DNA of 64,000 nt from an uncultured Armatimonadetes bacterium (GCA_963717145.1 OY970325.1:3010448-3074447), one strand, 5' to 3'. Positions 854-61,737 are shown, counted from the stretch's first letter. Numbers and translations are program-made. Notes: generated by a model not told the origin, from the letters alone.

Positions 854-1063
854 GTAGGGGAGGCCTTCAACGGCCTCCCGCTCGGGCGGGCGTAGAAGCA
901 CCGCCCCTACAGCACATCGTTCCTGGTCCGTAGGGGAGGCCTTCAACGGCCTCCCGCTCGGGCGGGCGTAAGAAGCACCGCCCCTACAGCACATCGTTCC
1001 TGGTCCGTAGGGGAGGCCTTCAACGGCCTCCCGCTCGGGCGGGCGTAGAAGCACCGCCCCTAC
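854..1063. repeat. three tandem copies of REP family A (854-910, 930-987, 1007-1063) with 19-bp spacers
   Basis: Unit: GTAGGGGAGGCCTTCAACGGCCTCCCGCTCGGGCGGGCGTAGAAGCACCGCCCCTAC. The termini GTAGGGG/CCCCTAC are complementary and enclose two internal hairpins. The array lies between gspF and gspG. Confidence 0.9.
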
Positions 1064-2286
1064 CCTGATGTAAGATTCAGTTGGAATACCGGCAGGAGCA
1101 TCGCCATTATGATGAAGGCGATCATGCTCCCGACGGTGATTATGATCAACGGCTCGAGCAGCGAAACGAGGCTCTTCAGGGACGCATCGACCTCGACATC
1201 ATACGAATTCGCTACCGTGAGCAGTGTCCCCTGGAGGTCGCCGGTCTCCTCCCCGACGCCGACCATGTGGGTCAACAGCGGCGGAAAGACTCCGGTGTCC
1301 TTCAGTCGGGTCGCGAAACTCTCTCCTTCGCGCATACCTTCGCGCACCTGGTCCGCACCGCGCGCCAGCACCTCATTCCCCGCGACCTCGCGCACGACAA
1401 CCATCGAGTCGAGCAGCGGGACTCCGCCCTTGAGCAGTGTCGCAGTCGTTCTGGCAAACCGCGAGACCGCCGACTTCAGTATCAGCTTTCCGAACAGCGG
1501 CATCTTGAGCTTCCAGCGATCCACGTGCAGTCGTCCGTTCGTGCTGCGGCCGTACTCCTTCATCCCTACGACGAGACCGACAACCGACCCGATGATGAGC
1601 CACCACCAGTGTGTCAGGAACGCCGAAACCCCGAGCATGATGATCGTCGGCAGCGGGAGCGCCTGGTTGAACTCCTCGAAAATCGTTACGAATCGCGGGA
1701 CTACGAATGTCACCAGCAGGAAGACTGAACTCAGGCCGACCGTTATCAGGAGCACCGGATACGCCAGCGCGCTTCTGATCTGCAGCTTCTGGGTCTGCTC
1801 CTTCTCCTGATAGTCCGCGAGCCACAGCAGGACGTCGGACAACTGGCCACTCGCCTCGCCTGCTTTGACCATGCTGACGTACAGCGGCGGGAATATCCTG
1901 GGATGCGAGCTGAGCGCCTCCCAGAGCGCCTTGCCGCTCTGGACATCCTGCTGCATCCTCTGCATCACCGCGCGCAGTCGAGTGCTCTCCGTATGCTCGG
2001 TGAGGGCCGCGAACGTGCGCATCAACGGCAACCCGCCCGCGACGAGGTTGGCAAGCTGGCGACTGAATACCGTCAGATCGCGGCTATTGATCCCGCCGCC
2101 GACCTTGAATGCTTCCGCCCGAGTCTCGGACGCGGCTGATTGGCTGTCCCCGACGGCTCGGACATCCACAGGGAAGAGCCCCAGGCCCTTGATCTGCAGG
2201 ATGGCGGTCTTCTCATCGTCAGCGGTGACCCGGCCGGCAACCGATCGGCCTCCATTATCCAAACCTTTGTAAGTGAAACCTGGCAT
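1060..2286 (-). CDS. gspF: type II secretion / type IV pilus platform protein GspF/PilC family
   Basis: 408-aa ORF with two T2SSF-type repeats and predicted membrane helices (e.g. ALAYPVLLITVGLSSVFLLVTFVVP). Sits between gspE and gspG. Confidence 0.9.
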   Translation of the reverse strand: MPGFTYKGLDNGGRSVAGRVTADDEKTAILQIKGLGLFPVDVRAVGDSQSAASETRAEAFKVGGGINSRDLTVFSRQLANLVAGGLPLMRTFAALTEHTESTRLRAVMQRMQQDVQSGKALWEALSSHPRIFPPLYVSMVKAGEASGQLSDVLLWLADYQEKEQTQKLQIRSALAYPVLLITVGLSSVFLLVTFVVPRFVTIFEEFNQALPLPTIIMLGVSAFLTHWWWLIIGSVVGLVVGMKEYGRSTNGRLHVDRWKLKMPLFGKLILKSAVSRFARTTATLLKGGVPLLDSMVVVREVAGNEVLARGADQVREGMREGESFATRLKDTGVFPPLLTHMVGVGEETGDLQGTLLTVANSYDVEVDASLKSLVSLLEPLIIITVGSMIAFIIMAMLLPVFQLNLTSG

Positions 2287-2338
2287 ATTTCTTCAGTTAT
2301 CAGTCGTCAGTGGGAGTAGTCTCTGTCCGCGGCCCTGG

Positions 2339-2454
2339 CAAACCCCCTCGGCCCAGAGGCCGGTCCCCCTTCGTAAGGGGGACATCACCGAACCCCTCGC
2401 GCCAAAGATGTCCCCCTTACGAAGGGGGACCGGCCTCTGGGCCGAGGGGGTTTG
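2339..2454. repeat. long compound palindrome (about 46-bp arms, about 23-nt loop)
   Basis: CAAACCCCCTCGGCCCAGAGGCCGGTCCCCCTTCGTAAGGGGGACAT ... ATGTCCCCCTTACGAAGGGGGACCGGCCTCTGGGCCGAGGGGGTTTG. Each arm also contains its own small hairpin. Lies between gspE and gspF. Confidence 0.85.
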
Positions 2455-2466
2455 ACCGGCCGCCAA

Positions 2467-4155: not shown

Positions 4156-4408
4156 TGCTCATCTTTCCGTTTTGTAATAACCAGGTACTATGACCCGGAA
4201 TTGGCCCGGATTGTTCCTGATACCGTTTACATCCTGCGATCTTCCGCTACCCAGTACTTAGACGCGTATTCAGCCTGAAAAGTTGTGAAACCGGCGGAGA
4301 TGCTTGCATCACGCACCCGCGAACCGTCGTTGCTCAATGGTCTTAGATACTCGCCGGCGTCATCTCCTTCAATCGGTTCCTGATGCAGAAAGAAGAGGGA
4401 ACCGTCTG

Positions 4409-4525
4409 GTCCTGAGTGCGCCGGTGAATGACGGCGTGTATCGAAGGACGGTGGAACATGCACAAAGGTTGGTGGCACAAGGCCGTCCTTCGATACACGC
4501 CGTCATTCACCGGCGCACTCAGGAC
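4409..4525. repeat. long palindrome (43-bp arms, about 31-nt loop)
   Basis: GTCCTGAGTGCGCCGGTGAATGACGGCGTGTATCGAAGGACGG ... CCGTCCTTCGATACACGCCGTCATTCACCGGCGCACTCAGGAC. Confidence 0.85.
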
Positions 4526-4611
4526 TAGCGGGTTCTGGGAAACAAGAAAAAGGGCGGGACACCTTCCGGCATCCCGCCCATTCCGACTTCTGACTCCTGA
4601 CTCCTTGCCAC

Positions 4612-5286: not shown

Positions 5287-5756
5287 GTCTATGCCCTCAC
5301 TTGATGGCCGACGACGCGCCGGCCGGTAGTCGGCGCAGTGTGACCCGAGCCGCCGTTCATATTATCGGCATTCAGGGCAGACTTCTCCAGCGATAGACGT
5401 GTAACCGCTCGATCGGGGAACGGCATTCCCAAGCCGGGGGGTGGCATAAGTATGCACGCGAACGCCTCAGGTATGACTACCCACGTCACCGGGAGGCATG
5501 GGAACGTGATAAGTATGCATACCCAAAGCACCGGTAGGCCGGGGATCGCCATCGGGACGCATACTTCTGAGATCAGGATTCGTGGGAATATGGTTTGCGG
5601 ATCGAGGCACGGGAGGATGGGTGCGCGTGATTCCGTCATGGGTATCGCACCCGGCGTTCGTTAGGTACTTGTTACGAGTGAAGGGAAGTCTCTTTGTGCG
5701 GGCGCGTGGCGAGAAAGCTGGAGAAGAAATAAGTCGCGTTATCCAACAAGCTGGAA

Positions 5757-5792
5757 GGGGGATGGCCTGGCCTTCAGCCTCTGCCATCCCCC
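5757..5792 (-). terminator. hairpin downstream of the 5897..7407 operon (possible terminator)
   Basis: GGGGGATGGC-N16-GCCATCCCCC, a 10-bp GC-rich stem about 105 nt after the stop at 5897. Only a weak T-rich tail follows on the minus strand. Confidence 0.35.
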
Positions 5793-5896
5793 TCAGGAAG
5801 ACAGTAATCGCAGATCGAGCCTAGTCCAGCAAACTCCACATCAGAAAGCCGTGACTGGCAGGTTAAGCCGTTAGAGACATGCCAAAACCTCTGTGC

Positions 5897-6253
5897 CTAT
5901 TTCGGCGGTTCCAGTCCTTCTGTCTTCTCTATCAGTTTCGTGCCTACATTGACGCCAGCGGATAGGACGCCCGTCACCTTCTCGATCGCTGTGACCCCGC
6001 TTCTCAGATCTTCAAGTGCGTCCTTTATCGATTCGTTAGCTTTGCTAACATCACCAACAAGGCTCTTTATCTGCTGCTCGTGTTTCGAGAAGATCAGGTT
6101 GCGTCCCTTGAGATAGTTGAGATTCGCTTGTTTCCAGGCATTCACTATCTCGAGAGTTTGGGCATAGTTCGCTCTCCGCACCATATCATCTAGGTCGTCG
6201 TCAATGAGTCGGAACTGCTCGCTCAGAAGCAGGTAAACGTCTTGGTCGTTCAC
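5897..6253 (-). CDS. hypothetical small helical protein (118 aa), low-GC island
   Basis: ORF overlaps the upstream gene by 4 nt (ATGA coupling). Composition is charged and helical. No recognisable family. Confidence 0.6.
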   Translation of the reverse strand: MNDQDVYLLLSEQFRLIDDDLDDMVRRANYAQTLEIVNAWKQANLNYLKGRNLIFSKHEQQIKSLVGDVSKANESIKDALEDLRSGVTAIEKVTGVLSAGVNVGTKLIEKTEGLEPPK

Positions 6254-7407
6254 GGCTGCCCTCCTTTTTGGTTTGCCCTCAAAAGCTCAGTCATAAAGTT
6301 GGCCGGCATTCCTTTGGACTCAAGCTCGTCGAGCATGATCTGCACTGTGGCCGATTCACTCATCAGCTCCTGCATGGAAAACGGTTTTTGAGCGGCGAGT
6401 TGCTCATGAAGGACCAGGAGCTTGCCAAGTGCGCGAGAAACACCCGTGCCCGTATCTTCTGAGAGTTCCATCAACGGGTATGCACGTGCAATTATCATTT
6501 TCATGCTACCAGCCTTCAAGCCGGGCTGTGTAAACGGCATCGTAGGCTCGGGCCAGTGCAGTTGGTATTGGCTCAAGACTCGATTCACCAGAGCCGTAGA
6601 GTCGACAGCCTCACTCTCTACAAGTTCAAGAGCTACCGACTTATAGGTGGCTGCGCGTCGACCGGCAATGCCGGAGACTTCCCTATCCTTCCCTTGACTG
6701 TCCTTCATCGTCTTGTCTCCACCATAGAGTGGCATCTCGGCATCAAAAATTTCTTTGGTCTTCTGCACTATCGGGACAAGACGACGACTCTCTCGCAGCA
6801 ATTTGCGGTTATGCTGGATAGTACCTAACTCCTTGATCAGATCCTTAAACAATCCCTGAACCACTGTGGAAATCGTTCCCGTAGGATCTGGAAGGGATAG
6901 ACTGGCTGCGGAATTCGCCGCCTTGATCAGTCCACCAATGCTGTCCTCCAGTTCTTTCGTCGAGTCATAGTCCGCCAACCGTCCATAGCTAGCGTATGCA
7001 CGCTCTATTTCTTTGGCAAGCCGGGCCCTAGCAGCCAATGCCCGATAGGTTACTTGATATTCGTGCAAGATTGCCTCATCTGTTGCCGACATCGCCAAGG
7101 AAGGAGGCGTAGGTGGAGTTTGGCCGTTCTCCTTTGCTTTCTTCACCTGTTCTTCGTATTTCCGTTCAACCAGATAGGCTTCACGAAAGGCATTCAACTC
7201 GTATGTATCCAGGGTATCCTGTTGCAACAACCCATAGTACTCCGCCATCTGCTTGAAAACAGTCTCTCCACCGCTGGCTACCTTTGATGCGTCCTGACGG
7301 AGAGACTTCGTGCAGCCTGTGAGTAAGATCGCACACAGGGCAAATAGCATGAGCCCACGGAATGGCCCACTGCGTGAACCATTTGACCGAAATGAGGGGT
7401 AGAGCAT
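6250..7407 (-). CDS. hypothetical lipoprotein (about 385 aa), low-GC island
   Basis: Lipobox LMLFALCAILLTG|C. ATG 7407 is preceded by GAAGGAGG (6-nt spacing); the track start at 7422 is a TTG inside the RBS. The mature part is predicted all-helical and matches no family I know. Confidence 0.7.
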   Translation of the reverse strand: MLYPSFRSNGSRSGPFRGLMLFALCAILLTGCTKSLRQDASKVASGGETVFKQMAEYYGLLQQDTLDTYELNAFREAYLVERKYEEQVKKAKENGQTPPTPPSLAMSATDEAILHEYQVTYRALAARARLAKEIERAYASYGRLADYDSTKELEDSIGGLIKAANSAASLSLPDPTGTISTVVQGLFKDLIKELGTIQHNRKLLRESRRLVPIVQKTKEIFDAEMPLYGGDKTMKDSQGKDREVSGIAGRRAATYKSVALELVESEAVDSTALVNRVLSQYQLHWPEPTMPFTQPGLKAGSMKMIIARAYPLMELSEDTGTGVSRALGKLLVLHEQLAAQKPFSMQELMSESATVQIMLDELESKGMPANFMTELLRANQKGGQP

Positions 7408-7488
7408 GCAGTCCTCCTTCAAAGCGTCACTTTTCCACTAATGGCTTAACCCAACTAGCCTTGAAAGCTTGGCTGGATTAGCATCGGG

Positions 7489-7517
7489 ATTATAACAATA
7501 TCCGGAGAGGCTGTCAA
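7489..7517 (-). promoter_or_regulatory. consensus sigma70 promoter for the 7407..5897 operon
   Basis: Minus strand reads TTGACA-gcctctccggatattgt-TATAAT: exact -35 and -10 hexamers, 17-bp spacer, and a TGT extended -10. It lies about 80 nt upstream of ATG 7407. Confidence 0.6.
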
Positions 7518-7645
7518 TGGGTAAGTTCAGGGCAATCGCACATTGACGTGCATGCGGTATTGTCACGATTAATGAGATTATTGCTGCACGAACCTTTGGG
7601 ATAAAGCCTCGAGCTGGTGAATAGCACTTTCACCAGGAGGTCACC

Positions 7646-7879
7646 ATGGGCGGTTACGCAGGGTTCTTCGCACACTTTGGCATCGAGCCTGATCCAAGAG
7701 GAGAGCGGGGTATGAAACAGAAGCTGTTAGATGTGCTCTTCATCGCATTGTGCACGGTTCTCTCGGGCGGTGAAGGGTTTACGGATATGCATCTATTTGC
7801 GAAGTCGCGTGAGGAATGGCTGAGGAAGCATATCCAACTGCCTGGAGGCATACCCTCGCACGACACGTTCCGAGGAGTG
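7646..7879 (+). pseudogene. ISAs1-family transposase N-terminal remnant (about 78 codons)
   Basis: FGIEPDPRGERGMKQKLLDVLFIALCTVLSGGEGFTDMHLFAKSREEWLRKHIQLPGGIPSHDTFRGV matches the conserved N-terminus of ISAs1/H-repeat transposases. Similarity stops near 7880 and there is no DDE domain. The rest of track ORF 7646..8176 is unrelated read-through. Confidence 0.6.
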
Positions 7880-8023
7880 CCTTCGATCACTGTCAGCAAC
7901 GAGCGCTCGCCCTGGGTACGTTGGTTCAGACCTAAGCGTATGGCCATGACTTGCAGCCATGGTTTAGGCCGTGATCTGCGGCCAGCGAGTGAGCGATTCC
8001 GTGGGGAAAAGGTGTCGGGTCGC

Positions 8024-8163
8024 CTATTCCAACGGATCCTCGAGCACCCACTGCTTGCCTTCGACCATCGGGGTGCGGTAGGTGTGCTCGATGCGGCCGG
8101 TCTTCTCGAGGTGGTCCATGCACTTCCTCAGGCAGCCCCGACCGCCGCAGATCGTGTGGTGGC
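8024..8163 (-). pseudogene. orphan duplicated 3' end (last ~46 codons plus stop) of the Fe-S gene at 9074..9976
   Basis: 8024-8163 aligns base for base with 9074-9213, with 5 mismatches that I counted. The same frame gives ...CGGRGCLRKCMDHLEKTGRIEH.YRTPMVEGKQWVLEDPLE*. Confidence 0.8.
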
Positions 8164-8233
8164 AGCCTGGAATTGATCGGATAGCTGCGTCACAGCCTCA
8201 CCGATGATAGAGACGTATGGCGCATGCGGGCGC

Positions 8234-8863
8234 TCAGGATGTTACATTCGCGAAGGCGCGGTAATACTTGACCCGGAACTTAGGAAGCTCCAATATCCCC
8301 TGTATCTCTTCCGGTAGAAATTCATGGTCGCCGTAGTCTGCCGGATGTTCCTGCATCCACTTCGCCTGATCCCGGTCGATCGGCGCAGTGAAGTAGGCAT
8401 CGGCTATGCCGTGGTCTATGTGTGACACCTCGGCGTCTGAGGTCGCGGACATTCCGAGCGGATAGAGCCGGAGCAGCCGTCTGTCCTTCCCTGACCAATA
8501 TGCAAGGGGACGGATATCCGCGGTGCAGTCATCCATGCCCCAGTACGAGATGAGTTCCTCGATTCTCGGATACAGCATCCTGTAGTCCATGTCGATGGAA
8601 GCGAGCAGATGTGCTCGGACGACACCCCCACCGATATCATACCCGGCGAATATCGGCTGCTCGGTGCAATCCTTCTGGAAACCTGCCATGCATTGCATTG
8701 CCAGCCAACCGGCCCACGGCAGCCCCTTAGCGGCGGCGTGATCGTACAGAGTGCGATATTCAAACTCGAAGACGGTTGAGCGGAAGACCTCATTCGTGTC
8801 GACGTCCAGCTCAATGGGCACAAGCTCCGAGAGGGAGATGTTAACGACCGGCCATTGTGGCAT
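8234..8863 (-). CDS. hypothetical protein (209 aa) on a cassette between the 140-bp direct repeats
   Basis: Clean ORF with AAGGAGG 7 nt upstream and its own sigma70 promoter. No recognisable domain. GC is lower than in the flanks. Confidence 0.65.
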   Translation of the reverse strand: MPQWPVVNISLSELVPIELDVDTNEVFRSTVFEFEYRTLYDHAAAKGLPWAGWLAMQCMAGFQKDCTEQPIFAGYDIGGGVVRAHLLASIDMDYRMLYPRIEELISYWGMDDCTADIRPLAYWSGKDRRLLRLYPLGMSATSDAEVSHIDHGIADAYFTAPIDRDQAKWMQEHPADYGDHEFLPEEIQGILELPKFRVKYYRAFANVTS

Positions 8864-8900
8864 CCGATACGCCTCCTTTGCCGTGGGTGATATCCAAAGT

Positions 8901-9073: not shown

Positions 9074-9976
9074 CTATTCCAGCGGATCCTCGAGCACCCA
9101 CTGCTTGCCTTCGACCATCGGGGTGCGGTAGATGTGCTCGATGCGGCCGGTCTTCTCCAGGTGGTCCATGCACTTCCTCAGGCAGCCGCGACCGCCGCAG
9201 ATCGTGCGGTGGCGGAAGCGGTGATCGAGGAACTTGTAGTACGGGGGCGGGTTCTCCTGGCTGGAGTCCGGCTCGAGGAACGGCGAATACTTCGGGTCCC
9301 AGCCCAGATGCGGATACCAGCACTTCCCGCAATCGAGTGGCGCGTGGCTGAATACCCGATCCTCGATGGTGAACTCGACGCTGCGCTCGGTCGGGATCGC
9401 GTCGGCGGGACACGCCCTCGCGCATTCGCCGCAGTTGTCGCATACGCTCCCTCGGAAGAGCGGATCGGGTTCGAGCGCCGCGTCGGTGAGGACGGCGAAT
9501 ATCCGCTGGCGCGGCCCGAACTGCGGTGTGAGGAGCAGCTTGCTCAGCCCGAGTTCGCCGAGCCCCGCCGCACAGCCGAGGACCCGCATGCTCATCATCC
9601 CGTCCGGTCGTGTACCGCCCGGGCGGACGGGCCGCCCCACGTGAGGCGTGAATGGATTGTGGATCGGCACGGACGTGTAGCCCCGGTCCTCCAGGAAGAG
9701 GATGATCTTTCGCAGCATGTGAGGCGCGAGGATCTCGTTCAGGTACTGGTAGGAGTCGCAGTTGTACGCCTGCCAGTAGTTGCCCTCCTCGATCGTCTTG
9801 AGCGCGCCCCTGAGCATGCGACATCCGAGCACGATGGCGCTCTGTGTGCCGCCGAGGATGGTCCGTGGATGCAGATCGGGCGGCGCATTGTCGAAGCGGT
9901 CGATCGACGCGATCCCGACCAGGTCCGCGCCGGCCTCGCGAGCGACTTTCTTCACCTCGGCGGTTAGTGTGGTCAT
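9074..9976 (-). CDS. 4Fe-4S cluster protein, epoxyqueuosine reductase (QueG)/reductive dehalogenase-like
   Basis: 300 aa. Ferredoxin motif CDNCGECARACP plus further Cys pairs (CGKC, CGGRGCLRKC). The N-terminal AREAGADLVGIASIDRF is typical of the QueG/RdhA-like family. Confidence 0.7.
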   Translation of the reverse strand: MTTLTAEVKKVAREAGADLVGIASIDRFDNAPPDLHPRTILGGTQSAIVLGCRMLRGALKTIEEGNYWQAYNCDSYQYLNEILAPHMLRKIILFLEDRGYTSVPIHNPFTPHVGRPVRPGGTRPDGMMSMRVLGCAAGLGELGLSKLLLTPQFGPRQRIFAVLTDAALEPDPLFRGSVCDNCGECARACPADAIPTERSVEFTIEDRVFSHAPLDCGKCWYPHLGWDPKYSPFLEPDSSQENPPPYYKFLDHRFRHRTICGGRGCLRKCMDHLEKTGRIEHIYRTPMVEGKQWVLEDPLE

Positions 9977-11545: not shown

Positions 11546-12958
11546 ATGAGCATCACACGGCGGGACTTCATGAAGAAAGCGGCGGCTCTGTCCGCATTTG
11601 CACTTGGAGGTGAATCATTGGTAGATGCGGCACAGGATCAGAAGAAGCCGAACATCGTTTTCGTGTTCAGCGACCAACAGCGGTGGGACAGCGTGGGGTG
11701 CTACGGGCAGGAGCTTCCGCTCACGCCGAACCTCGACAAGATGGCGTCCGAGGGCGTGCGCTTCGAGACGGCATTCACCTGCCAGCCGGTATGCGGTCCC
11801 GCGCGGGCGGCTCTTCAGACCGGCAAGTACCCCACCGAGATGGGCTGCTTCACGAACAACCGCGCGCTTCCGCTCGACGAGAAGACCCTCGCGACCTACC
11901 TCTCCGCTCAGGGATATGAGGTCGGCTACATCGGCAAGTGGCATCTCGCCTCCTCCAAGGGCGACAACTTCCGCGAGATAGGCGTCCCTCCCGAGCGACG
12001 CGGCGGCTACAAGGACTTCTGGCTCGCGTCCGACGTGCTTGAGTTCACGTCCCACAGCTACGACGGCCACATGCATGACGGCAGAGGCGAGAAGGTCGAG
12101 TTCCCGAAGGACCGGTATCGCGCCGACTGCCTGACCGACTATGCCGTCGATTATCTCAGGACGCGCGACTTAGAGAAGCCGTTCTTCCTGTTCATCTCGT
12201 ACATCGAGCCGCATCACCAGAACGACCATAAGGTATTCGAAGGGCCGAAGGGCTCCAAGGAGAAGTGCAAGGACTACAAGGTCCCCGGCGACCTCGTCGG
12301 CACTCAGGGCGACTGGCAGGAGAACTACCCCGACTACCTCGGATGCATCAACAGCCTCGACCGCAACCTCGGCCGAATCCGTGAGGAGTTGGAGAAGCGC
12401 GGACTCGCCGACAACACGCTCGTCATCTACACGAGCGACCACGCCTGCCACTTCCGGACGCGGAACGGCGAGTACAAGCGCGCCTGCCACGACGACTCGA
12501 TCCGCATCCCGATGATCGCCTGCGGTCCGGGGTTCGAGGGCGGCAAGGTCGTCCAGGGACTCGCGAGCCTGATCGACATGCCGCCGACGATCTTGGCAGC
12601 GGCGGGAGTGAAGCCTCCATCGCTCATGAGGGGCCATCCGCTGCAGGACCTCGTCGCCGGGAAGGACTGGCCGGAGGAAGTCTTCGTCCAGATCAGCGAG
12701 GCACAGGTCGGGCGGGCGATTCGGACGAAGAAGTGGAAGTACTCCGTCTATGCGCCGGACAAGAGTGGCGGCAAGGACCCGGGCAGCGATGTCTATGTCG
12801 AGGAGTACCTCTACGACCTCGAGAAGGACCCGTTCGAGAAGAACAGCCTGGTGAGCGACCCGGCCGTCGCCGACGTGAGGAAGGACCTCGCGGCCATCCT
12901 CAAGCGGCGGATGGTCGCTGTCGGCGAGAAGGAACCGGTCATCAACCCAGCGCCGTAG
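11546..12958 (+). CDS. arylsulfatase A-family sulfatase with a Tat signal
   Basis: MSITRRDFMKKAAALSAFALGG is a twin-arginine signal. FSDQQRWD, and the CGPAR formylglycine motif within CQPVCGPARAALQTGKYP. GGAGGA lies 8 nt upstream of ATG 11546; the track start is 11525. Confidence 0.9.
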   Translation: MSITRRDFMKKAAALSAFALGGESLVDAAQDQKKPNIVFVFSDQQRWDSVGCYGQELPLTPNLDKMASEGVRFETAFTCQPVCGPARAALQTGKYPTEMGCFTNNRALPLDEKTLATYLSAQGYEVGYIGKWHLASSKGDNFREIGVPPERRGGYKDFWLASDVLEFTSHSYDGHMHDGRGEKVEFPKDRYRADCLTDYAVDYLRTRDLEKPFFLFISYIEPHHQNDHKVFEGPKGSKEKCKDYKVPGDLVGTQGDWQENYPDYLGCINSLDRNLGRIREELEKRGLADNTLVIYTSDHACHFRTRNGEYKRACHDDSIRIPMIACGPGFEGGKVVQGLASLIDMPPTILAAAGVKPPSLMRGHPLQDLVAGKDWPEEVFVQISEAQVGRAIRTKKWKYSVYAPDKSGGKDPGSDVYVEEYLYDLEKDPFEKNSLVSDPAVADVRKDLAAILKRRMVAVGEKEPVINPAP

Positions 12959-13090
12959 GGGCGGTGCTTCTACGCCCGCCCGCCTTCGGTGTAGTGGCCG
13001 TGCCTCCGTGCCGGCCTTACGGTGGGCTGGCCGGCACGGAGGCACGGCCACTACGACGCGAAACGGGAGGCCGTTGAAGGCCTCCCCTAC
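12955..13090. repeat. REP family A copy (12955-12981 + 13065-13090) interrupted by a REP family C hairpin (12991-13053)
   Basis: GTAGGGGCGGTGCTTCTACGCCCGCCC | GTAGTGGCCGTGCCTCCGTGCCGGCC...GGCCGGCACGGAGGCACGGCCACTAC | GGGAGGCCGTTGAAGGCCTCCCCTAC. The outer halves equal the reverse complement of the 854-910 unit. The inner element equals 21679-21743. Confidence 0.9.
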
Positions 13091-15505: not shown

Positions 15506-15695
15506 TCCACGCGCGAAGCCCATTCTCGAGAAGATCGTCTCGGACACGGATGAACCCCCGTACATCCAGGTATCGGCCAGCGAGGCACTTCACCTCATCT
15601 TGAAGGCGGCCTTCTCACGGCCCCAGACCTGTTCCAGCAACGCGGTCAGAGAGGCCGGACGCATCAGACCGATCAGACCGATCCGACGGATCTGA
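15390..15695 (+). CDS. HEAT/PBS-lyase-type repeat tail, probably the C-terminus of RecQ
   Basis: ALGKIGDPSAVEPLIALLKTESHPQVRQYAIKALGRIGDPRAKPILEKIV... The first HEAT unit begins in the recQ frame (VPELIQALASSGGNVRRLAAS) and continues in the next frame, so one repeat straddles the shift. Confidence 0.65.
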   Translation, partial: ALGKIGDPSAVEPLIALLKTESHPQVRQYAIKALGRIGDPRAKPILEKIVSDTDEPPYIQVSASEALHLILKAAFSRPQTCSSNAVREAGRIRPIRPIRRI

Positions 15696-15716: not shown

Positions 15717-15729
15717 GACGCCCGACCCG

Positions 15730-48455: not shown

Positions 48456-48524
48456 GTCACCTTCCAGGCGATCCGGACTAGCTTCCTATTACACCCGATG
48501 AGCGGGTAGTCCTGCTGGTCAGGT

Positions 48525-48629
48525 GATCGTAATGTAGGGGCGTGCCTTGTGCCGCCCGCAACCGGCGTGCCTTGTGCCGCCAGACACGCCGGTTGCGGGC
48601 GGCACAAGGCACGCCCCTACATTACGATC
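48525..48629. repeat. GTAGGGGCG-headed long hairpin (about 45-bp arms)
   Basis: GATCGTAATGTAGGGGCGTGCCTTGTGCCGCCCGCAACCGGCGTG ... CACGCCGGTTGCGGGCGGCACAAGGCACGCCCCTACATTACGATC. Confidence 0.9.
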
Positions 48630-49617
48630 ACGCCAGCGGTTGGCTCGCGATGGTATCGAGGTCGAGGCCGTCGATATCGCCGCGCAGGACGTGATGGTAG
48701 CCCGCGCAGGCGATCATGGCCGCGTTGTCGGTGCAGAGTCGCGGGGGAGGATAGGAGAGTTCGATCCCGCGACTGTCGCACACTTCCTGCATCGAACGCT
48801 TGAGGCCCGAGTTCGCCGCGACGCCCCCGCCGAGCGCAACTCGCTCGATGCCGGTCTGCTCGACGGCCCGCATCGTGGTGCTCACCAGCATCTCCACAAC
48901 TGCGGCCTGGAAGCTCGCGGCGAGGTCCTCGATCGGGACCTCGCCTCCGTGAGCCTGGAAGTGCCTGACGACGGCGGTCTTGATCCCACTGAAGCTGAAG
49001 TCGAGCCCATCGACCTTGGAGCGGGGGAAGCGCACTGCCTCCGGGTTCCCATCCTTCGCAAGTGAATCGATGATAGGGCCGCCGGGATATCCGAGTCCCA
49101 TCGCGCGCGCGGACTTGTCGAACGCCTCACCCGACGCGTCGTCCCTCGTGCGACCGAGAATCCTGTACTCACCGTGTCCGCTCACCAGCACGAGGTCCGT
49201 GTGGCCGCCGGAGACGATCAGGCAGACGAACGGGAACTGCAGGCCGGGATTCGCCAGGAAGTTGGCATAGATGTGGCCTTCGAGGTGATGGACTCCGACG
49301 AGCGGGAGGTTCAACGCGGCCGAAATCGCCTTCGCCGCCGAGACACCGACGAGGAGCGCTCCGAGCAGGCCGGGACGATTGGTGACGGCGATCGCATCGA
49401 CGTCCCTGAGCGTGAGATCGGCCTTATCGAGCGCCTCCCGGATCACGATGTTGATCAGCTCGACGTGCTTGCGAGAGGCGATTTCCGGCACGATCCCGCC
49501 GAAACGGGCATGGAGATCGATCTGAGATGCTATGACATCGGAGAGTATCTTGCAGCCGTCTTCAACGATTGAGGAGGATGTGTCGTCGCAGCTTGTCTCG
49601 ATGCCGAGAACTCTCAT
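48628..49617 (-). CDS. tsaD: tRNA N6-adenosine threonylcarbamoyltransferase TsaD
   Basis: MRVLGIETSCDDTS..., HLEGHIYANF and SGGHT motifs. ATG 49617 overlaps the rimI stop (ATGA). The track start is 49692. Confidence 0.9.
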   Translation of the reverse strand: MRVLGIETSCDDTSSSIVEDGCKILSDVIASQIDLHARFGGIVPEIASRKHVELINIVIREALDKADLTLRDVDAIAVTNRPGLLGALLVGVSAAKAISAALNLPLVGVHHLEGHIYANFLANPGLQFPFVCLIVSGGHTDLVLVSGHGEYRILGRTRDDASGEAFDKSARAMGLGYPGGPIIDSLAKDGNPEAVRFPRSKVDGLDFSFSGIKTAVVRHFQAHGGEVPIEDLAASFQAAVVEMLVSTTMRAVEQTGIERVALGGGVAANSGLKRSMQEVCDSRGIELSYPPPRLCTDNAAMIACAGYHHVLRGDIDGLDLDTIASQPLA

Positions 49618-50203: not shown

Positions 50204-50288
50204 GGGAGACATTAGACATGAGACTCTAGACCCTAGACCTTGGGAGGTCCGTAGCCAAAGTCTAATGTCTTAGGTCTAAGGTCTCCCC
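50204..50288. repeat. imperfect palindrome built from TAGAC/GTCTA units
   Basis: GGGGAGACATTAGACATGAGACTCTAGACCCTAGACC ... GTCTAATGTCTTAGGTCTAAGGTCTCCCC. Confidence 0.6.
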
Positions 50289-52531: not shown

Positions 52532-52578
52532 GGGGGATGGGGGATGGTTGATGGCTGATGGTTGATGGTTAATGGGGA
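52532..52578. repeat. repeat family E half-element
   Basis: GGGGGATGGGGGATGGTTGATGGCTGATGGTTGATGGTTAATGGGGA. Confidence 0.75.
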
Positions 52579-52636
52579 GACGGGAGGCCTGCCTTGGCGG
52601 GAACCACCGCTGGCGGAATGCGAGCGGCGGACGATG

Positions 52637-54637: not shown

Positions 54638-54676
54638 GTTGTATGGGGAGGGACTCGGAATCCCTCCCCATACAAC
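54638..54676 (-). terminator. 16-bp hairpin after the beta-propeller gene (terminator-like, no U tract)
   Basis: GTTGTATGGGGAGGGA-ctcggaa-TCCCTCCCCATACAAC, 27 nt downstream of the stop at 54703. Confidence 0.35.
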
Positions 54677-54702: not shown

Positions 54703-55797
54703 TCAGTGTGACGACGAGAGCGGTTTGGCGATGGGCTTCTTGTCACCCCGGTCGAGTTCGGCGCAGTAAACTACGTTGCTCTTGACCCAAATGACCCGGT
54801 TGCCGCTGACGGAAGGCCCCTGATCGGAGATGTCCTTGCTGATCTTGAACTCCTGGGCTCCGGGAGTGGTCAACATGCCATAGACGTAACAGACCTTCCC
54901 CTGGGGCTTCAGGTAGACGAGCAGACCGTCATCGATGTCGAGGTAGCTGGTACCCTCCGCGATCCGGCCACGGTACTGCTCTGTGGCGATATCATAGCTG
55001 TAGATGCCACCGGGTTCGCCTGCGCCATACCATACGACGGTCTTACCATCAGTAGCGGAGTTGGAACACTCCATGCCGGTATCCTCGCCTATGGGAGCCA
55101 GACGTTGCCTCGATATCTGGTACACATGGATGCGTCCGCGGTCACATACCGTTGTCCACGTTACATAGTCGCCGCCGATCGAGATCCCGGCATTCATGTT
55201 GCCTTTCGAGGGGTTGCAGATCCGCTGGGAGCGCCCCGTGCGCATGTCGGCAAGATAGACATGTCCGCCATTTACGTAAGCCACCCAGTGGTCCTGAATA
55301 ACCGGGAAGGCCGTGGTGAAGCTTGCCAAAGGCGGGGAGTAGTAGACTCCCGTGGTCAGATCGCACACCAACAGGTTCGACGGCATCTGCTGGTTCGGCT
55401 CGCCATTCAGCGTCCGAAGTGTCTGCTGCGCGCTGGTCTTGCCGGTCCAGGTGACGTAGTTGCCGTTTACGTCGGGCTGGTATGATCCTTCGGGCCACAA
55501 CGTGTACACCTTCTTGGTGACCACGTTGCAGATGACGACCTGCGCCGTGGCATTCGGGTTCTTCTGGTCGGTGTTGTAGATGGCCACCACCCAGTCGCCG
55601 GAGATCCTGGGCCGGAGGATGCGGCCTTCGGGAAACGGGAGTTTGTACTCCTTGAGGACCGTGGCGGTAAGCGGATCGGCTTTGTGAACCGCCGGTTGAG
55701 TAGCACGGACCTCCGAATCGGCGGCTGACCACGCGGGGGACACTAGTACTACTAGTGCCGAGATGGTTAATGCGATGACTACGAGCCTTGCTTTCAT
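54703..55797 (-). CDS. secreted beta-propeller-like repeat protein
   Basis: From ATG 55797 (GGAGGGG RBS): signal MKARLVVIALTISALVVLVSPAWSA. Seven or so units recur with G[DN].V.W (GDWVVAIY, GNYVTWTG, DHWVAYVN, GDYVTWTT, GKTVVWYG, GNRVIWVK). Confidence 0.75.
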   Translation of the reverse strand: MKARLVVIALTISALVVLVSPAWSAADSEVRATQPAVHKADPLTATVLKEYKLPFPEGRILRPRISGDWVVAIYNTDQKNPNATAQVVICNVVTKKVYTLWPEGSYQPDVNGNYVTWTGKTSAQQTLRTLNGEPNQQMPSNLLVCDLTTGVYYSPPLASFTTAFPVIQDHWVAYVNGGHVYLADMRTGRSQRICNPSKGNMNAGISIGGDYVTWTTVCDRGRIHVYQISRQRLAPIGEDTGMECSNSATDGKTVVWYGAGEPGGIYSYDIATEQYRGRIAEGTSYLDIDDGLLVYLKPQGKVCYVYGMLTTPGAQEFKISKDISDQGPSVSGNRVIWVKSNVVYCAELDRGDKKPIAKPLSSSH

Positions 55798-55972
55798 GGT
55801 GACTTCCCCTCCATGCCTCGTTAGATATGGACTGCCGTCAGCCGGGATTACCCACGTCAAGATCAGGGATTCGTATCGCTTGCTGACCACTCAACTTGTC
55901 TTTCCAAGTATACCATATTTCCGTGGCAGCAACACGAATCATCCGCCATCAGATGTACGATCTGCGGAAAAC

Positions 55973-56922: not shown

Positions 56923-58185
56923 ATGCGATATTCCGCGCCGAGGGGAACCCAGGACATACTCCCCCGTGAGAGCCCCCGCTGGCAGTACGTCGAGGGCAAG
57001 TTCCGCGACATCTGCCGCTTGTACGGCTATCGTGAACTCCGCACGCCTACCTTCGAGGAGACGGAGCTTTTCACGCGCAGCATCGGCGAGCATACCGACA
57101 TCGTCAGCAAGGAGATGTACACGTTCCTCGACCGCGCCGAGAGGAGCATGACGCTCCGGCCCGAGGGGACGGCGCCCGTCGTCCGCGCGTATCTCCAACA
57201 CAAGCTTTACGGCGAAGCGCCGGTCAACAAAGTCTACTACGTCTCGAGCATCTTCCGCTACGAACGCCCTCAAGCGGGTCGATATCGCGAGCACCATCAG
57301 GTCGGCGCCGAAGCGATCGGTTCCGCCGATCCGGCGGTCGACGCCGAGGTCATCTCGCTCCTGATGCAATACTTGACCTCCCTGGGACTCCAGGGACTCG
57401 ATCTGAAGGTCAACTCAGTCGGATGCCCGGAATGCCGGCCATCATACCGCGAGGCGCTCAGGGAGTCAGTCGCGCCGTACCTGGACGAACTCTGCGAGAA
57501 TTGCCGGACACGCTATGACGCCAATCCGCTCAGGATGCTCGATTGCAAGGTCCCGATCTGCAAGGAGTTGACCGCCGCCGTCCCGAGCATCGTGGATCAC
57601 CTCTGTGACGACTGCTCCGAACACCTGAGGGCGGTCCTCGGCTACCTCGATCTTCTCGGCGTCAACTACACGGTCGATCCCAGGCTCGTGCGCGGGTTCG
57701 ACTACTACACGAAGACGGCATTCGAGGTCCTGAGCGCCCAACTCGGCTCACAGAACGCGGTCGGCGGCGGTGGTCGATATGACGGCCTCGTCGAAGAGAT
57801 GGGCGGGGATCCCACGCCAGGCGTGGGATTCGGATCCGGCATCGAGCGCGTTCTGTTGACCATGGAAGCACTGGGGATCGAGATCCCGGTGACGACGCAT
57901 CCGGATGTGTTTGTGGCAACCCTTGGCGACAAGCCTCGGGAGGCCGGCGTCAAGCTGCTGTCGGACCTGCGCAAGGCCGGAATCGCCGCCGAAACCGACT
58001 ATTCGGGTAAGAGCCTGAAGGCTCAGATGAAGGCCGCCGATCGCGAACAAGCGCGTTTCGTCGTGATCATCGGGGACGATGAATTGAGCCGCGGCCAGAT
58101 CAAGGTGCGGAATATGGCGACGAGGGAAGAGACCGATGTCCCGATCGATCAGGCGGTGGAGAAGATAACGAGCATGTTGGCGTGA
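56923..58185 (+). CDS. hisS: histidine--tRNA ligase
   Basis: MRYSAPRGTQDILP..., class II motifs (FRYERPQAGRYREHHQ, GGGRYD), and an anticodon-binding C-terminus. AAGGAGG lies 10 nt upstream; the alternative ATG is 56899. Confidence 0.9.
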   Translation: MRYSAPRGTQDILPRESPRWQYVEGKFRDICRLYGYRELRTPTFEETELFTRSIGEHTDIVSKEMYTFLDRAERSMTLRPEGTAPVVRAYLQHKLYGEAPVNKVYYVSSIFRYERPQAGRYREHHQVGAEAIGSADPAVDAEVISLLMQYLTSLGLQGLDLKVNSVGCPECRPSYREALRESVAPYLDELCENCRTRYDANPLRMLDCKVPICKELTAAVPSIVDHLCDDCSEHLRAVLGYLDLLGVNYTVDPRLVRGFDYYTKTAFEVLSAQLGSQNAVGGGGRYDGLVEEMGGDPTPGVGFGSGIERVLLTMEALGIEIPVTTHPDVFVATLGDKPREAGVKLLSDLRKAGIAAETDYSGKSLKAQMKAADREQARFVVIIGDDELSRGQIKVRNMATREETDVPIDQAVEKITSMLA

Positions 58186-58838
58186 TGGAACCGCCAAGAC
58201 GCCAAGGACGCCAAGCGCAAATGACTTCTCAGATGCTACTGATAATCGCACTGATGATGAGCATGACGGTGACGAGTCTCGCATCGAGTCTCACCGTCTA
58301 TCCCGGCCCGACCGGAGAGCCCGCATCCCAGGACTATGAGGTCCTAGTGAACGGAAAGCCCTGCTTCGTCTACACGTCGTTCCGCTACGATCCAGAATCC
58401 AAGAGCACCATCGTGGGCAGGCCGGTGTCGCCGGTAAGCTTCTGCTACTTCGACCATGCGGGTCCCGTAGAGGTCGAGGTGCGCTTCCTCGATGGCTTGA
58501 AAAAGGCCGGCATCGACGCGTCAAAGGTCGTCGTGCGTCCTCTGGCGCGTGAAATACGCCCCAAGGTCGAGGATGGGCGCATCCGCATCAAGATCGATCG
58601 GCCGGGACCGATTACCGTCGAGCCGGGCGGATCGCTCAGCCATCCCCTGCACATTTTCGCCAACCCGCCGGAGAAGGATGTCCCTGACCCGAAGGATCCC
58701 GAACGTCCTTTACTACGGCCCGGGGATCCACGAGGTGAGGGAGAAGGACCTCAAGTCTGGGCAGACGGTGTACATCGCAGGCGGCGCGGTCGTCTATCTG
58801 AAGCCGATCCCCGACGATCAGCGCACGGGCAAGCATGA
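58182..58838 (+). CDS. GH28-like pectin-lyase-fold protein, N-terminal part (signal peptide); frame is lost near 58698-58701
   Basis: Signal-like ...MTSQMLLIIALMMSMTVTSLASS. Sensible sequence runs up to ...HIFANPPEKDVPDPKDP, then continues in the next frame. Confidence 0.65.
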   Translation: MMEPPRRQGRQAQMTSQMLLIIALMMSMTVTSLASSLTVYPGPTGEPASQDYEVLVNGKPCFVYTSFRYDPESKSTIVGRPVSPVSFCYFDHAGPVEVEVRFLDGLKKAGIDASKVVVRPLAREIRPKVEDGRIRIKIDRPGPITVEPGGSLSHPLHIFANPPEKDVPDPKDPERPLLRPGDPRGEGEGPQVWADGVHRRRRGRLSEADPRRSAHGQA

Positions 58839-59754
58839 CGCCTACGGCCTGGACGTCTACTGGACTGGCCCCGGCCTGTTCACCAGCACGAACCAGAAGA
58901 ACATCACCCTGCGCGGCAGGGGCATCCTATGCGGGCGCAAGTCGCTGGAACACCGACAGCGCGGACCGCTCGCGAAGTTCGAGTTCGTCGAGAACCTGAC
59001 AGTCGAGGGCGTGATCATCCGGGAGTCGCCGGTCTGGTCGCTCAATATGGTGAACTGCCAACACGTGCGCATCTCGAACGTGAAGGTGATCGGTCACTTC
59101 GTGAACAACGACGGCATCGTCATCGGCGGGACATCCAACGCGTTGGTCGAGGACTGCTTCTCCCACAATGCGGATGATTCCCTCGAGATCAAGGTCTGGA
59201 TACCCCAGCACGATGTCACCTTCCGCAACTGCGTCGTCTGGAACGACATCGGAGGCAGCTTCGGCCTGTTTCACGAGTGCGGGGCCGAGCTGTCGAACGT
59301 CCTGTTCGAGAACTGCACGGTCCTGCACTCGACCGACGATTCATCGGTATGCCCCGTGGTCGGCTTGAAGGTCACGGGCTCGGGGAACGTGCACAACGTC
59401 CGGTTCGAGAACATCACGATCGAGCACGTGGCGTCGAAGAAGCGGCCCGCCCTCAAGCTGATCAACAACTGGGACGACTGGCACATCGAATACCCTACGA
59501 AGCCCGGATCGCCGTATGAACTGCTCGAACCGACGAAGCACGATCCGCCTTACGCGCCGATCCGTGACGTGGTCTTCAAGAATATCCGCGTGCTGGAGTG
59601 CAAGAATACGGATGTCGTGCTGATGTCCGACGGTGCCGGCAGCCCAATTGAGGGTATCATCTTCGAGAACGTGGTCATTGGCGGGAAGCGTCTCGTCCCC
59701 GACGATCCGCGGATTGTGAAGAATGAGTGGGTCCGCAAAGTGACTGTGCGGTAG
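58549..59754 (+). CDS. GH28-like pectin-lyase-fold protein, C-terminal part (true coding from about 58699)
   Basis: NVLYYGPGIHEV..., FVNNDGIVIGG and HNADDSLEIK (GH28-type acidic motifs), with parallel beta-helix periodicity. Confidence 0.75.
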   Translation: MKYAPRSRMGASASRSIGRDRLPSSRADRSAIPCTFSPTRRRRMSLTRRIPNVLYYGPGIHEVREKDLKSGQTVYIAGGAVVYLKPIPDDQRTGKHDAYGLDVYWTGPGLFTSTNQKNITLRGRGILCGRKSLEHRQRGPLAKFEFVENLTVEGVIIRESPVWSLNMVNCQHVRISNVKVIGHFVNNDGIVIGGTSNALVEDCFSHNADDSLEIKVWIPQHDVTFRNCVVWNDIGGSFGLFHECGAELSNVLFENCTVLHSTDDSSVCPVVGLKVTGSGNVHNVRFENITIEHVASKKRPALKLINNWDDWHIEYPTKPGSPYELLEPTKHDPPYAPIRDVVFKNIRVLECKNTDVVLMSDGAGSPIEGIIFENVVIGGKRLVPDDPRIVKNEWVRKVTVR

Positions 59755-59759
59755 GCAGG

Positions 59760-59844
59760 GTGTTTCGGGATTTGAGTGCAACGGAAATCCCGAAACGCAT
59801 CTGTAGCCTTTCGGGATTTCCGTTGCACTCAAATCCCGAAACAC
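59760..59844. repeat. compound hairpin (36-bp arms, each with an internal hairpin)
   Basis: GTGTTTCGGGATTTGAGTGCAACGGAAATCCCGAAA-N13-TTTCGGGATTTCCGTTGCACTCAAATCCCGAAACAC. Confidence 0.9.
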
Positions 59845-59875
59845 CGAACACCGATTACGAGTAGGAGTGGCGAAT

Positions 59876-61522
59876 ATGGAATGGCAGAGGACGAAGAAAT
59901 GCGGCGAGTTGACGGCTGAGAACATCGGGCAGGAAGTACGCCTGAACGGTTGGGTCCAGAAGCGGCGTGACCACGGCGGACTGATCTTCATCGATCTCAG
60001 GGATCGCTGGGGAACCGTTCAGGTCGTGGTCGATCCTAGCCATGCGAAGGAGGCCCACGCAGCGGCGGAATCCGTCCGGAGCGAGTACGTTCTCAGCGTG
60101 CAGGGCAAGGTCCGGCAACGCCCCGAGGGCACCGAGAACCCGAACCTCAACACCGGGCAGGTGGAAGTCGTCACCGACCAGATCTTCATTCTCAACACTT
60201 CCAAGACGCCTCCGTTCCCGATCTCGGATGAGGTCGATGTGGACGAACTCGTTCGTCTGAAGTACCGGTATCTCGACCTCCGGCGACCTGCGATGCAGGA
60301 GAAGCTGATCCTCCGGCACAGGCTCATCAAGCTGATGCGCGATTTCCTCGACGCCCGCGAGTTCCTCGAGATCGAGACGCCGATCCTGATCAAGAGCACC
60401 CCCGAGGGCGCGCGCGACTACCTCGTGCCCAGCCGGCTCTATCCCGGCAGCTTCTACGCACTGCCCCAGTCGCCTCAGCAGCTCAAGCAGCTTCTCATGG
60501 TGGCCGGCATCGAGCGCTATTTCCAGATCGCCAAGTGCTTCCGCGACGAGGACCCTCGAGCCGACCGCCAGCCGGAGTTCACACAGCTCGACCTCGAGAT
60601 GTCATTCGCCAAGCAGGACGATATCCTGGAGGTCACCGAGTCGCTGATGATCCAGATCGTCGAGACGCTCTCCGACAAGAAGATCGTGAAGCCATTCCCG
60701 CGACTCACATACGCTCAGGCTATGGACAGATACGGCTCGGACAAGCCGGACCTGCGCTTCGGGCTCGAACTCATAAGCTTCGACGATCTGGTGGCCGACA
60801 GCCAGTATATGGTCTTCCGGAACGCGCTCGACAAGGGCGGCCGGGTCAAGGGAATCCTCGCGCCGGGATGTGCGAGTTACAGCCGCAAGGATATCGACGA
60901 CATCACGGCGCTGGCCCGAACGTTCGGCGCGAAGGGACTGCTGACGATCCAGGTGACGCCGGAGGGCATCAAGTCGCCGAGCGCCAAGTATCTCACGGAG
61001 CAGGAGATGTCGAGCATCGTCGAGCGGGCAGGCGCGAAGGTCGGCGACATGATTATGATAGTCGCAGACGAGCCGGCGCTGGTCGCGAAGGCGCTCAGCG
61101 GGCTCAGGCTCGAGATCGGCGACCGGCTCAACCTGCGCGACCCGAACATGCTCTACTTCCTGTGGGTCGTCGATTTCCCGATGTTCGAATGGGACGAGAA
61201 GGCCAACCGCTGGGATTCGGCGCACCATCCGTTCACCTCGCCACACGAGGACGACATCGCCCTGCTCGACTCGGATCCGGGCAAGGCGAGGTCGAATGCA
61301 TACGACCTCGTGTGCAGTGGAGCTGAGGTCGCGAGTGGAAGCATCAGGATCCACCAGCGCGAGGTCCAGGAGAAGGTCTTCCGGCTGCTCAACATCCCCG
61401 AGGAGGAGCAGGTCGCGCGGTTCGGGCACATGCTCGAGGCCTTCGAGTACGGCGCCCCACCCCACGGCGGAATCGCTCCCGGCATCGACCGCCTGGTGAT
61501 GTTGATGCTCGGGCGAGGATAA
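59876..61522 (+). CDS. aspS: aspartate--tRNA ligase (main part; frame break at the GGG run 61511-61513)
   Basis: [27 protein letters not shown]..., [10 protein letters not shown], and class II motifs. It ends prematurely at ...[13 protein letters not shown]. Confidence 0.9.
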
Positions 61523-61667
61523 CATCCGCGAGGTGATCGCGTTCCCGAAGACGGCGACGGCATACGATCCGATGACCGAGGCGCCCTCGCCGGTCACCGA
61601 GGAGCAGCTCAAGGAGTTGCACATCAAGCTCCGCGAGGGAGCGGCATCGGATATTCGGACAGTCTGA
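61515..61667 (+). CDS. aspS: aspartate--tRNA ligase, displaced C-terminal 50 codons
   Basis: The next frame reads [39 protein letters not shown]..., the conserved AspRS motif 3 / C-terminus. Confidence 0.8.
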
Positions 61668-61669
61668 GC

Positions 61670-61737
61670 GGAATGGTTGATGGTTCATGGGGCGATCCGC
61701 CGTTAGCCATCAACCATCTCCCCATTGACCATTCCCC
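61670..61737. repeat. repeat family E element (imperfect hairpin)
   Basis: GGAATGGTTGATGGTTCATGGGG ... CCATCAACCATCTCCCCATTGACCATTCCCC. Confidence 0.7.

Follow-up and report, generated by a model that had tools for sequence, protein, structure and literature searches.

GTAG-headed REP elements and other small palindromic repeats between the genes of an uncultured Armatimonadota bacterium

Several families of small palindromic repeats were found between the genes in a 64,000-nt stretch of DNA from an uncultured Armatimonadota bacterium (GCA_963717145.1 OY970325.1:3010448-3074447, hereafter the window). We consider it probable, at roughly 0.7, that such families have colonised the intergenic DNA of this chromosome, that they are mainly repetitive extragenic palindromic (REP) elements with a GTAG head moved by REP-associated tyrosine transposases (RAYTs), and that some copies have been retained by the host. 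Families A, B and C, together with an element near position 48525 and another at 11406, are true GTAG-tagged REPs. An earlier reading of the sequence alone (the original prediction) had stated that families A, B and C and the 48525 element begin with GTAG and end with CTAC, which the sequence confirmed, and the GTAG head is present on all units of these families as well as on those of the 11406 element.

Hairpins were searched with a stem of at least 14 bp, at most one mismatch and a loop of up to 60 nt, and five second-order Markov simulations served as controls. Genes were mapped from GC content by codon position and from Pfam matches, and element positions were set against this map. Statements about the genome as a whole rest on about 0.33 Mb of related DNA, whose loci carry L numbers below. 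These include species X (L001, L003-5 and L040-42; metagenome-assembled genome (MAG) GCA_964466715.1), with flanking proteins about 85-90% identical to those of the window, the MAG GCA_017993055.1 (L043), and the closest relative (L006 and L007, JGI sample 3300032516), with an aspartyl-tRNA synthetase (AspRS) 94% identical; L008 and L044 were compared as further relatives. All named homologs of AspRS, RecQ and the histidine kinase come from Armatimonadota MAGs. Among the near-identical strain contigs L003/L004/L005 and L040/L041 no indels were found.

The search returned 18 hairpins in the window and none in any of the five controls. Long hairpins amount to 2.8 per 10 kb, compared with 0 to 1.5 in the syntenic contigs of the relatives. 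Elements occupy 23 of the 54 gene junctions (about 43%), and there are 40 junctions whose spacer is 40 nt or longer, so that counted on these the figure is 23 of 40; the expectation that nearly every junction carries one was therefore overstated, although the density is real. Together they span 2.3 kb, equal to 3.6% of the window; of its intergenic DNA they make up 27%. Of the 23 occupied junctions, 20 are co-directional. The motifs GTAGGGG and CCCCTAC occur 10 and 9 times, respectively, almost all within elements. Inverted-repeat scanning and folding confirmed the hairpins predicted at the outset, with the exception of E2, and four further elements were added to the list (Table 1). No hairpin matched an Rfam 15 family at the gathering score in a scan of the window, where the sole match was a tRNA gene at 31117-31187 on the minus strand.

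The commonest GTAG-headed unit reads (CC)GTAG-GGG-5 nt-TTCNAY loop-5 nt-CCC, with a C at position -2 from the head in 57 of 67 units and at position -1 in 55 of 67. Two such units make up family A: a1, which is GTAG GGGAGGCC TTCAAC GGCCTCCC, and a2, which is GTAG GGGCGGTGC TTCTAC GCCCGCCC. The a-type units, of which 19 distinct variants were compared, share an 8-bp stem and the constant TTCNAY loop. Their stem cells are paired in 97.4% of cases, as against 40-56% in slid controls, and three of the eight stem pairs have changed on both sides (A-U/C-G, G-C/A-U and G-C/C-G). The units of C, a2 and the 48525 element look related (GTAG-KGGCSG-TGCYT...-CCGSCC), and the family B unit, GTAGGGGCGAAGCATTGGCT, which also occurs in L034, forms a long-armed symmetric dimer. 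Units are arranged head-outward as inverted dimers with a short spacer that fold into one long hairpin, as in REP doublets forming hairpins (REPINs), and each family has 5 to 8 copies in the 64 kb. B and C are always symmetric doublets in the window. Family A is not one hairpin but a head-outward pair of two different small REPs.

Comparison of orthologous sites demonstrated that the repeats are non-autonomous DNA inserted in the lineage of the window without target-site duplication. C2, A3 and B3 are missing, with clean ends, at the orthologous sites of related species, which is the presence/absence polymorphism that had been proposed as a check. At the C2 site, the URODb and URODc genes of L040 overlap (ATGA) and the window has 92 extra nt precisely there, including C2. 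UROD2 of the window lacks its last six codons, its new stop is the TAG of the GTAG of C2, and the old gene end persists downstream of C2 as the ribosome-binding region of UROD3. At the A3 site, the distance from the kinase stop to the activator start is 28 nt in L042 and 14 nt in L043, both of them empty, and the window has the same flanks plus CC-GTAG...CTAC-GG. A promoter-like TTGACT-17-TATACT and a downstream GGGAGG-ATG are conserved in the window, L042 and L043; between them the window has about 94 extra nt including B3, which places B3 in a 5' untranslated region (UTR). Target-site duplications were found neither at these three sites nor at that of D1, an element without the GTAG head, in comparisons with species X and L043. 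Their absence at four sites fits single-strand transposition of the HUH/Y1 type and argues against miniature inverted-repeat transposable elements (MITEs) of the DDE type. Next to B3, on the minus strand at 36063-36175 and after a PilZ response-regulator gene, a hairpin with a T-rich terminator precedes the TTGACT-17-TATACT promoter. L042 and L043 share both features, and the terminator stem has compensatory changes.

Insertions sometimes remove the last codons of a gene and provide a new TAG stop from their own GTAG. The GTAG head provides the stop of the upstream gene in four elements, namely A1c, A2, C2 and B4: the final CTAC of the 854-1063 cluster contains the stop of a minus-strand type II secretion system (T2SS) F gene, and the GTAG of a2 in the 12955-13090 mosaic is the stop of a sulfatase gene. 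Most of the GTAG REPs stand only a few bases from the stop codon of the upstream gene; ten elements end at most 10 nt from that stop. TAG terminates 20 of the 50 window genes, and 12 of these stops read GTAG; this share, which seems high for a bacterium, could partly have been left by GTAG repeats that sit where genes end.

One copy has been kept across species. B1 is present at the orthologous junction between RecQ/phosphoribosyltransferase (PRTase) and DprA in L040, with two differences per arm, both compensated (GTAG/CTAC to GCAG/CTGC, so that the L040 copy has a GCAG head, and ATTGG/CCAAT to ATCGG/CCGAT), and with diverged loop and flanks. Either the hairpin is under selection or its arms correct each other.

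The families are also dispersed beyond the window, as had been expected of mobile repeats. The a1 26-mer was found at five window positions and at 31 other metagenome loci, mostly from the sample of the closest relative and none of them syntenic with the window; B and C units were found among the same loci. There, a1 stands alone and fully palindromic (GTAGGGGAGGCCTTCAACGGCCTCCCCTAC), with itself, or with a2, a3 (GGGCGATCC-TTCCAC-GGTCGCCC) or a4 (GGGCGGGC-TTCAAC-GCCCGCCC). The a1-C-a2 mosaic of the window recurs in L020 and L023, and C1 as a nested insertion into A2 was dropped on this ground. The lone a1 copies of L001 and L002, one inside the atp operon, the other flanked by thiolase-like and HMG-CoA-synthase-like genes, have no adjoining transposase, and scans of viral contigs with B and a1 gave no matches. 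The a1 26-mer occurs identically, in single copy, in an unrelated MAG of about 55% GC labelled Proteobacteria (L002:2153-2178 and L025:4658-4683), where it adjoins another GTAG-headed hairpin, GTAGCCGCAGGCTTTAGCCTGCG. Identity over 26 nt is very unlikely to be due to chance and could mean transfer of REPs and RAYTs between phyla. Species X has a REPIN family of its own, GTAGGAGCGGCTTCC(C)AGCCGCGA, at L003:3715-3776 and L040:15240-15400, which we take to be much like the Pseudomonas-type (GTAG-1) REPs.

We hypothesize that a RAYT-type HUH/Y1 transposase, whose gene would lie outside the window, acts in trans on the GTAG REPs and moves them in the form of single-stranded hairpin DNA. After insertion, some may be retained as structured 3'-UTR or inter-cistronic elements that would act as RNA-decay barriers or as modulators of translation or termination. 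Mobilisation by a RAYT is suggested by membership of the GTAG REP family, and retention by the host by position together with the conserved B1. Three other classes in the same niche (D; S2339 with S4409; the E type) may spread or arise differently.

Several observations weigh against this hypothesis. The transposase itself was not encountered: as the original prediction had noted for RAYT, neither Pfam on about 50 genes, phmmer nor motif searches identified a Y1/HUH, RAYT or IS200-type gene in the window. In all frames of 393 kb, made up of the window and related loci from several organisms with duplicates included, phmmer found no match to E. coli RayT (query 100% identical to PDB 4ER8) or to an approximate query for IS608 TnpA, and two motif searches with published HUH and Y signatures found none either. 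This covers about 6% of one genome's worth and several organisms, so that the absence of RAYT says little. In addition, single arms of B and C form no convincing small stem-loop, and a scan of a species-representative genome collection with the a1 26-mer returned two single-copy matches only. Since a1 has at least four different partners, a fixed doublet is not obviously the replicating unit, and mobile single REPs or recombination fit better. The long persistence of B1 implies that not all copies are recent insertions, and its compensatory changes can also stem from arm-to-arm gene conversion instead of selection.

A role of the elements at transcript 3' ends and in transcript stability, as originally suggested, is plausible from their position, although few of them have a U-tract. 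A T-rich downstream stretch (at least five T in the next 10 nt) follows only 2 of 21 elements, another point against the hypothesis; classical intrinsic terminators are therefore a minority among them. Of six wobble-type mismatches, five can pair on the strand that is transcribed, a weak hint of a role at the RNA level. In E. coli, REPs shield upstream mRNA from 3' exonucleases, and where a stop codon is no more than about 15 nt away, they can reduce expression of the upstream gene via ribosome stalling; by analogy, the REPs of the window may have the same effects on mRNA.

The elements might instead be 3'-end structures (terminators or hairpins for RNA stability) that the host built without transposition and remodelled in place by slippage and arm copying, their likeness being due to convergence or gene conversion. 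This would account for junctions at which each species has a different hairpin (the GNAT junction and the 3' ends of the activator and AspRS genes), for the conserved and compensated B1, for the microsatellite-like arms of the E class and the expansion of E2 relative to L006, and for the wobble-type mismatches. We nevertheless regard it as unlikely for the elements at large, because identical units of 26 to 59 nt stand at unrelated window loci and at the 31 metagenome loci, because insertions are sharp-ended at (CC)GTAG...CTAC(GG), one truncating a gene and one lying in a 5' UTR, and because most elements have no U-tract. Such an origin is plausible for no class but E, and a 3'-end function is plausible as a secondary role of REPs that were retained. 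Less probable still is mobilisation as MITEs by a DDE transposase, for example that of the IS5-like insertion sequence (IS) in the window. An intact IS5/IS1182-like element does adjoin D2, D has perfect 30-bp terminal inverted repeats (TIRs), and S2339 and S4409 lack the GTAG head. However, besides the missing target-site duplications, the ends of the IS (CTAGCAGCCTGTC) are unrelated to all element ends, the IS merely struck a CTAG, and the GTAG head, covarying small stem-loops and head-outward dimers are REP traits. Neither the defining features of MITEs (IS-matching TIRs with target-site duplication) nor the U-tract of intrinsic terminators characterises the elements. D as part of the adjacent IS was rejected for its unrelated ends.

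It is very improbable that pairs of GTAGGGG act as DNA-uptake-type signals. In Neisseria such signals are often inverted pairs downstream of genes, the motif is over-represented here, and the window has DprA, a ComF-like PRTase domain, and ATPase and platform genes of the T2SS/type IV pilus (T4P) type; what would be unexpected for uptake signals are the several unrelated families, each with long stems of its own, the stem covariation around a conserved loop and the insertions specific to one lineage. The last alternative, that the long perfect palindromes are assembly artefacts, is hardly credible. Frame-breaking indels in AspRS (a single G in a G-run) and in the RecQ-HEAT-PRTase fusion hint at a long-read assembly with residual errors, yet metagenome assemblies made independently from short reads contain these units too, and the elements sit at precise gene ends. 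Integron attC sites were dismissed as well, since no GTTRRRY/RYYYAAC ends were seen on inspection and the flanking housekeeping genes are syntenic. Colonisation mainly by RAYT-moved GTAG REPs remains our preferred explanation.

The several co-existing REPIN populations that had been proposed hold for the GTAG families, which are inverted doublets and do co-exist, with the reservation that the A doublet is not fixed. The families D and E and most singletons differ: they have no GTAG head and represent other kinds of palindromic repeat. D is a TIR-type element. D1 inserted in the last codons of a small zinc-ribbon open reading frame (ORF) and altered its C-terminus, the site being empty in L040, and D2 once lay 4 nt past the UROD1 stop, before the IS5-like element inserted at CTAG. 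UROD1 truly starts near 17685, downstream of D1, and UROD2 near 20597, downstream of D2.

The E class had been read as 9-mers, and its period is in fact 7 nt, (GGTTGAT)n. E2 exceeds its counterpart in L006 by about 49 nt, a microsatellite-type expansion. Where AspRS ends, a hairpin stands at one and the same position in the window, L003 and L008, built of different heptamers in each, and L007 has none; these palindromes thus hold their 3'-end position across species while the repeat sequence is replaced. A DUF6584 gene follows AspRS in L003, L007 and L008, and window positions 61665-61829 have E3 only. The junction of the 50204 element has different hairpins in L008 and L003.

The elements at 2339 and 4409, thought to be singletons, consist of units repeated in the lineage (L032, L015 and L009). 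L032 has these units of about 47 nt singly, one next to the other, and in L015 and L009 they stand at the ends of contigs. The non-GTAG dimers S2339, S4409 and 44313 are 125 to 165 bp long. No further copies of the 44313-44557, 59759 and 34126 elements were found in the window plus related loci. A GH28 gene with the 40-bp-stem palindrome (58168-59862) is inserted between HisRS and AspRS, which are adjacent genes in L003, L006 and L008. We think it doubtful that the heptamer arrays and non-GTAG dimers reflect an undescribed, RAYT-independent way of making or spreading 3'-end hairpins, which might involve slippage and subsequent arm-to-arm copying, or a mobilising enzyme of another kind.

Table 1. 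Palindromic and repeat elements of the window (positions counted from its first nucleotide)
Element	Coordinates	Strand	Description
Family A tandem cluster, BIME-like	854-1063		three a1+a2 dimers (854-910, 930-987, 1007-1063); identical 19-nt linkers
S2339	2334-2459		inverted dimer, 53-bp arms; ~47-nt unit without GTAG; unit single in L032
S4409	4399-4535		inverted dimer, 53-bp arms; second non-GTAG unit; copies in L032, L015, L009
Extra GTAG family (GTAGGGAACGG...)	11406-11482		copies in L029 and L042; absent from original prediction
Mosaic a2-C dimer-a1 (A2, C1)	12955-13090		C dimer (12991-13054) between both A units
Intragenic array	15660-15717		periodic build as in 50204 and E class; absent from original prediction
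B1, family B hairpin	16310-16379		10 nt past PRTase stop
D1	17550-17662		perfect 29-30-bp TIRs, 55-nt core
D2	20417-20530		inverted copy of D1, 91% identical
C2, family C dimer	21677-21745		within 92-nt insertion
B2, family B hairpin	22738-22807		between UROD3 and UROD4; L040 without UROD4 ortholog
Hairpin, 17-bp stem	34126-34188		RmlD/DksA junction (34104-34264); L042 has IleRS there; absent from original prediction
B3, family B hairpin	35994-36062		site empty in L042 and L043
B4, degenerate family B hairpin	37457-37528		CTAC contains TAG stop of sigma-54 activator gene; site in L042 occupied by unrelated hairpin
A3, family A dimer	38758-38816		4 nt past histidine-kinase stop
Two adjacent long palindromes	44313-44557		73-nt arms (90% complementarity) and 34-nt arms; divergent intergenic region
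E1	45942-46120		hairpin; arms tandem heptamers (GGTTGAT)n then complement; between convergent genes
48525 element	48523-48631		50-bp-stem dimer; GTAG...CTAC core 48534-48620; unit resembles a2 and C; outer stem contains TGA stop of TsaD
50204 element, imperfect hairpin	50204-50288		arms heptamer-periodic (TAGACNN)
E2	52538-52584	+	direct heptamer array only, no complementary arm
Hairpin, 16-bp stem	54638-54676		after gene 54703-55890; conserved in L006; absent from original prediction
S59760	59759-59845		40-bp-stem palindrome, 4 nt past GH28 stop
E3	61670-61737		heptamer-arm hairpin directly past ancestral AspRS end

Other features of the window were recorded alongside. The IS5/IS1182-like element is intact at 18818-20413, with its DDE transposase at 18974-20350 on the minus strand, 13-bp TIRs (CTAGCAGCCTGTC and GACAGGCTGCTAG) and a CTAG duplication, one copy at either end; it inserted at the CTAG holding the UROD1 stop, a site that is empty in L040. 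Four tandem URO-D paralogs are present at 17640-23789, compared with three in species X (L040:14076-17507), which has no ortholog of UROD4 (22809-23789). In AspRS (59876-61665), an extra G relative to L006 in a G-run near 61512 leads to an ORF stop at 61522 and puts the last 48 residues in the +1 frame; either this essential gene is truly frameshifted or the assembly has a homopolymer error here. RecQ of L040 is fused to a ComF-like PRTase domain (924 aa), and other homologs contain HEAT repeats; in the window (13097-16299), the frame differs between the RecQ part, a HEAT-like stretch and the PRTase part, three frames in all. The 15660-15717 array, built of palindromic 9-nt repeats, sits in the RecQ-PRTase linker, where the PRTase frame reads DASDRSDRSDGSDGSDGSDA. 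In two adjacent beta-helix genes (25209-30883), a repeat of about 1.3 kb (about 433 aa) is present four times in tandem, with 62-90% mutual identity of the copies. A lower-GC stretch at 5300-8900 (51.5% at 6-8 kb) has genes without a Pfam match and an ISAs1-like remnant (DDE_Tnp_1_assoc) at 7646-8176, and a 140-nt segment at 8024-8163 is duplicated at 9074-9213 with 96% identity.

Such repeats are already known from other bacteria. Di Nocera, De Gregorio and Rocco (2013; PMC3733652) described a GTAG REP superfamily of 24 families, including the REPs of E. coli and Pseudomonas and the SMAGs of S. maltophilia, and that survey reports a bias to positions downstream of ORFs, GTAG as TAG stop, head-to-head (HH) dimers, clusters and genomes with multiple families. 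Superfamily members have a GT[A/G]G tetranucleotide at one end of a short stem-loop, with stems of 6-13 bp and a loop typical of the family. All of these recur in the window, as do a stem length of about 8 bp, complementary changes that set stem sub-families apart and the location between co-directional genes. The units of the window differ in the conserved CC before GTAG, the TTCNAY loop and the near-perfect dimer stems of 20-50 bp. Armatimonadota did not turn up there as a host, and literature searches found no link between REPs or RAYTs and this phylum. D, S2339 and S4409 resemble the TIR families of the TIRYT tyrosine transposases in being longer inverted-repeat units without GTAG, single or as dimers (PMC3733652). 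In the case of D, S2339 and S4409, however, no transposase was seen.

Similarly to REPINs (Bertels and Rainey 2011), the window has inverted REP pairs with a short spacer in one hairpin, co-existing populations, insertion without duplication and some copies that persist across species; it differs in that the partner of a1 varies in family A and that neither the window nor the related DNA of about 0.33 Mb yielded a cognate RAYT, which in REPIN systems is a single-copy HUH/Y1 (PF01797) gene with the same REPs on its flanks. The 854-1063 cluster alternates two REP types in tandem with constant linkers, similar to the bacterial interspersed mosaic elements (BIMEs) of E. coli, but there is no evidence of IHF or gyrase motifs and the window has one such array only. 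Cyanobacterial short tandemly repeated repetitive (STRR) sequences are heptamer repeats in intergenic DNA. The E type is likewise an intergenic tandem heptanucleotide array, from which it differs by being followed by its own complement, so as to form a hairpin at a gene 3' end, and by belonging to another host phylum. The GTAG class has the head, stem-loop and gene-end position of GTAG REPs, as well as the structure that defines REPINs and BIMEs. Armatimonadota are a new lineage among the hosts of an element kind that is already known.

REPs in one more phylum would not surprise a specialist. GTAG REPs, REPIN-like dimers and BIME-like arrays are nonetheless extended here to Armatimonadota, a phylum that has received little study and is represented mostly by MAGs, and the insertions between species are unusually clean, with a gene truncated and re-terminated by GTAG, a case in a 5' UTR and one compensated, retained copy. 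The repeats break short-read assemblies, and some units stand at contig ends. Annotators of such genomes should bear in mind that repeats shape many of the gene ends, gene starts and TAG stops. If the cognate RAYT is found, the a-type stem variants with their one loop would provide a natural series for studying RAYT recognition.

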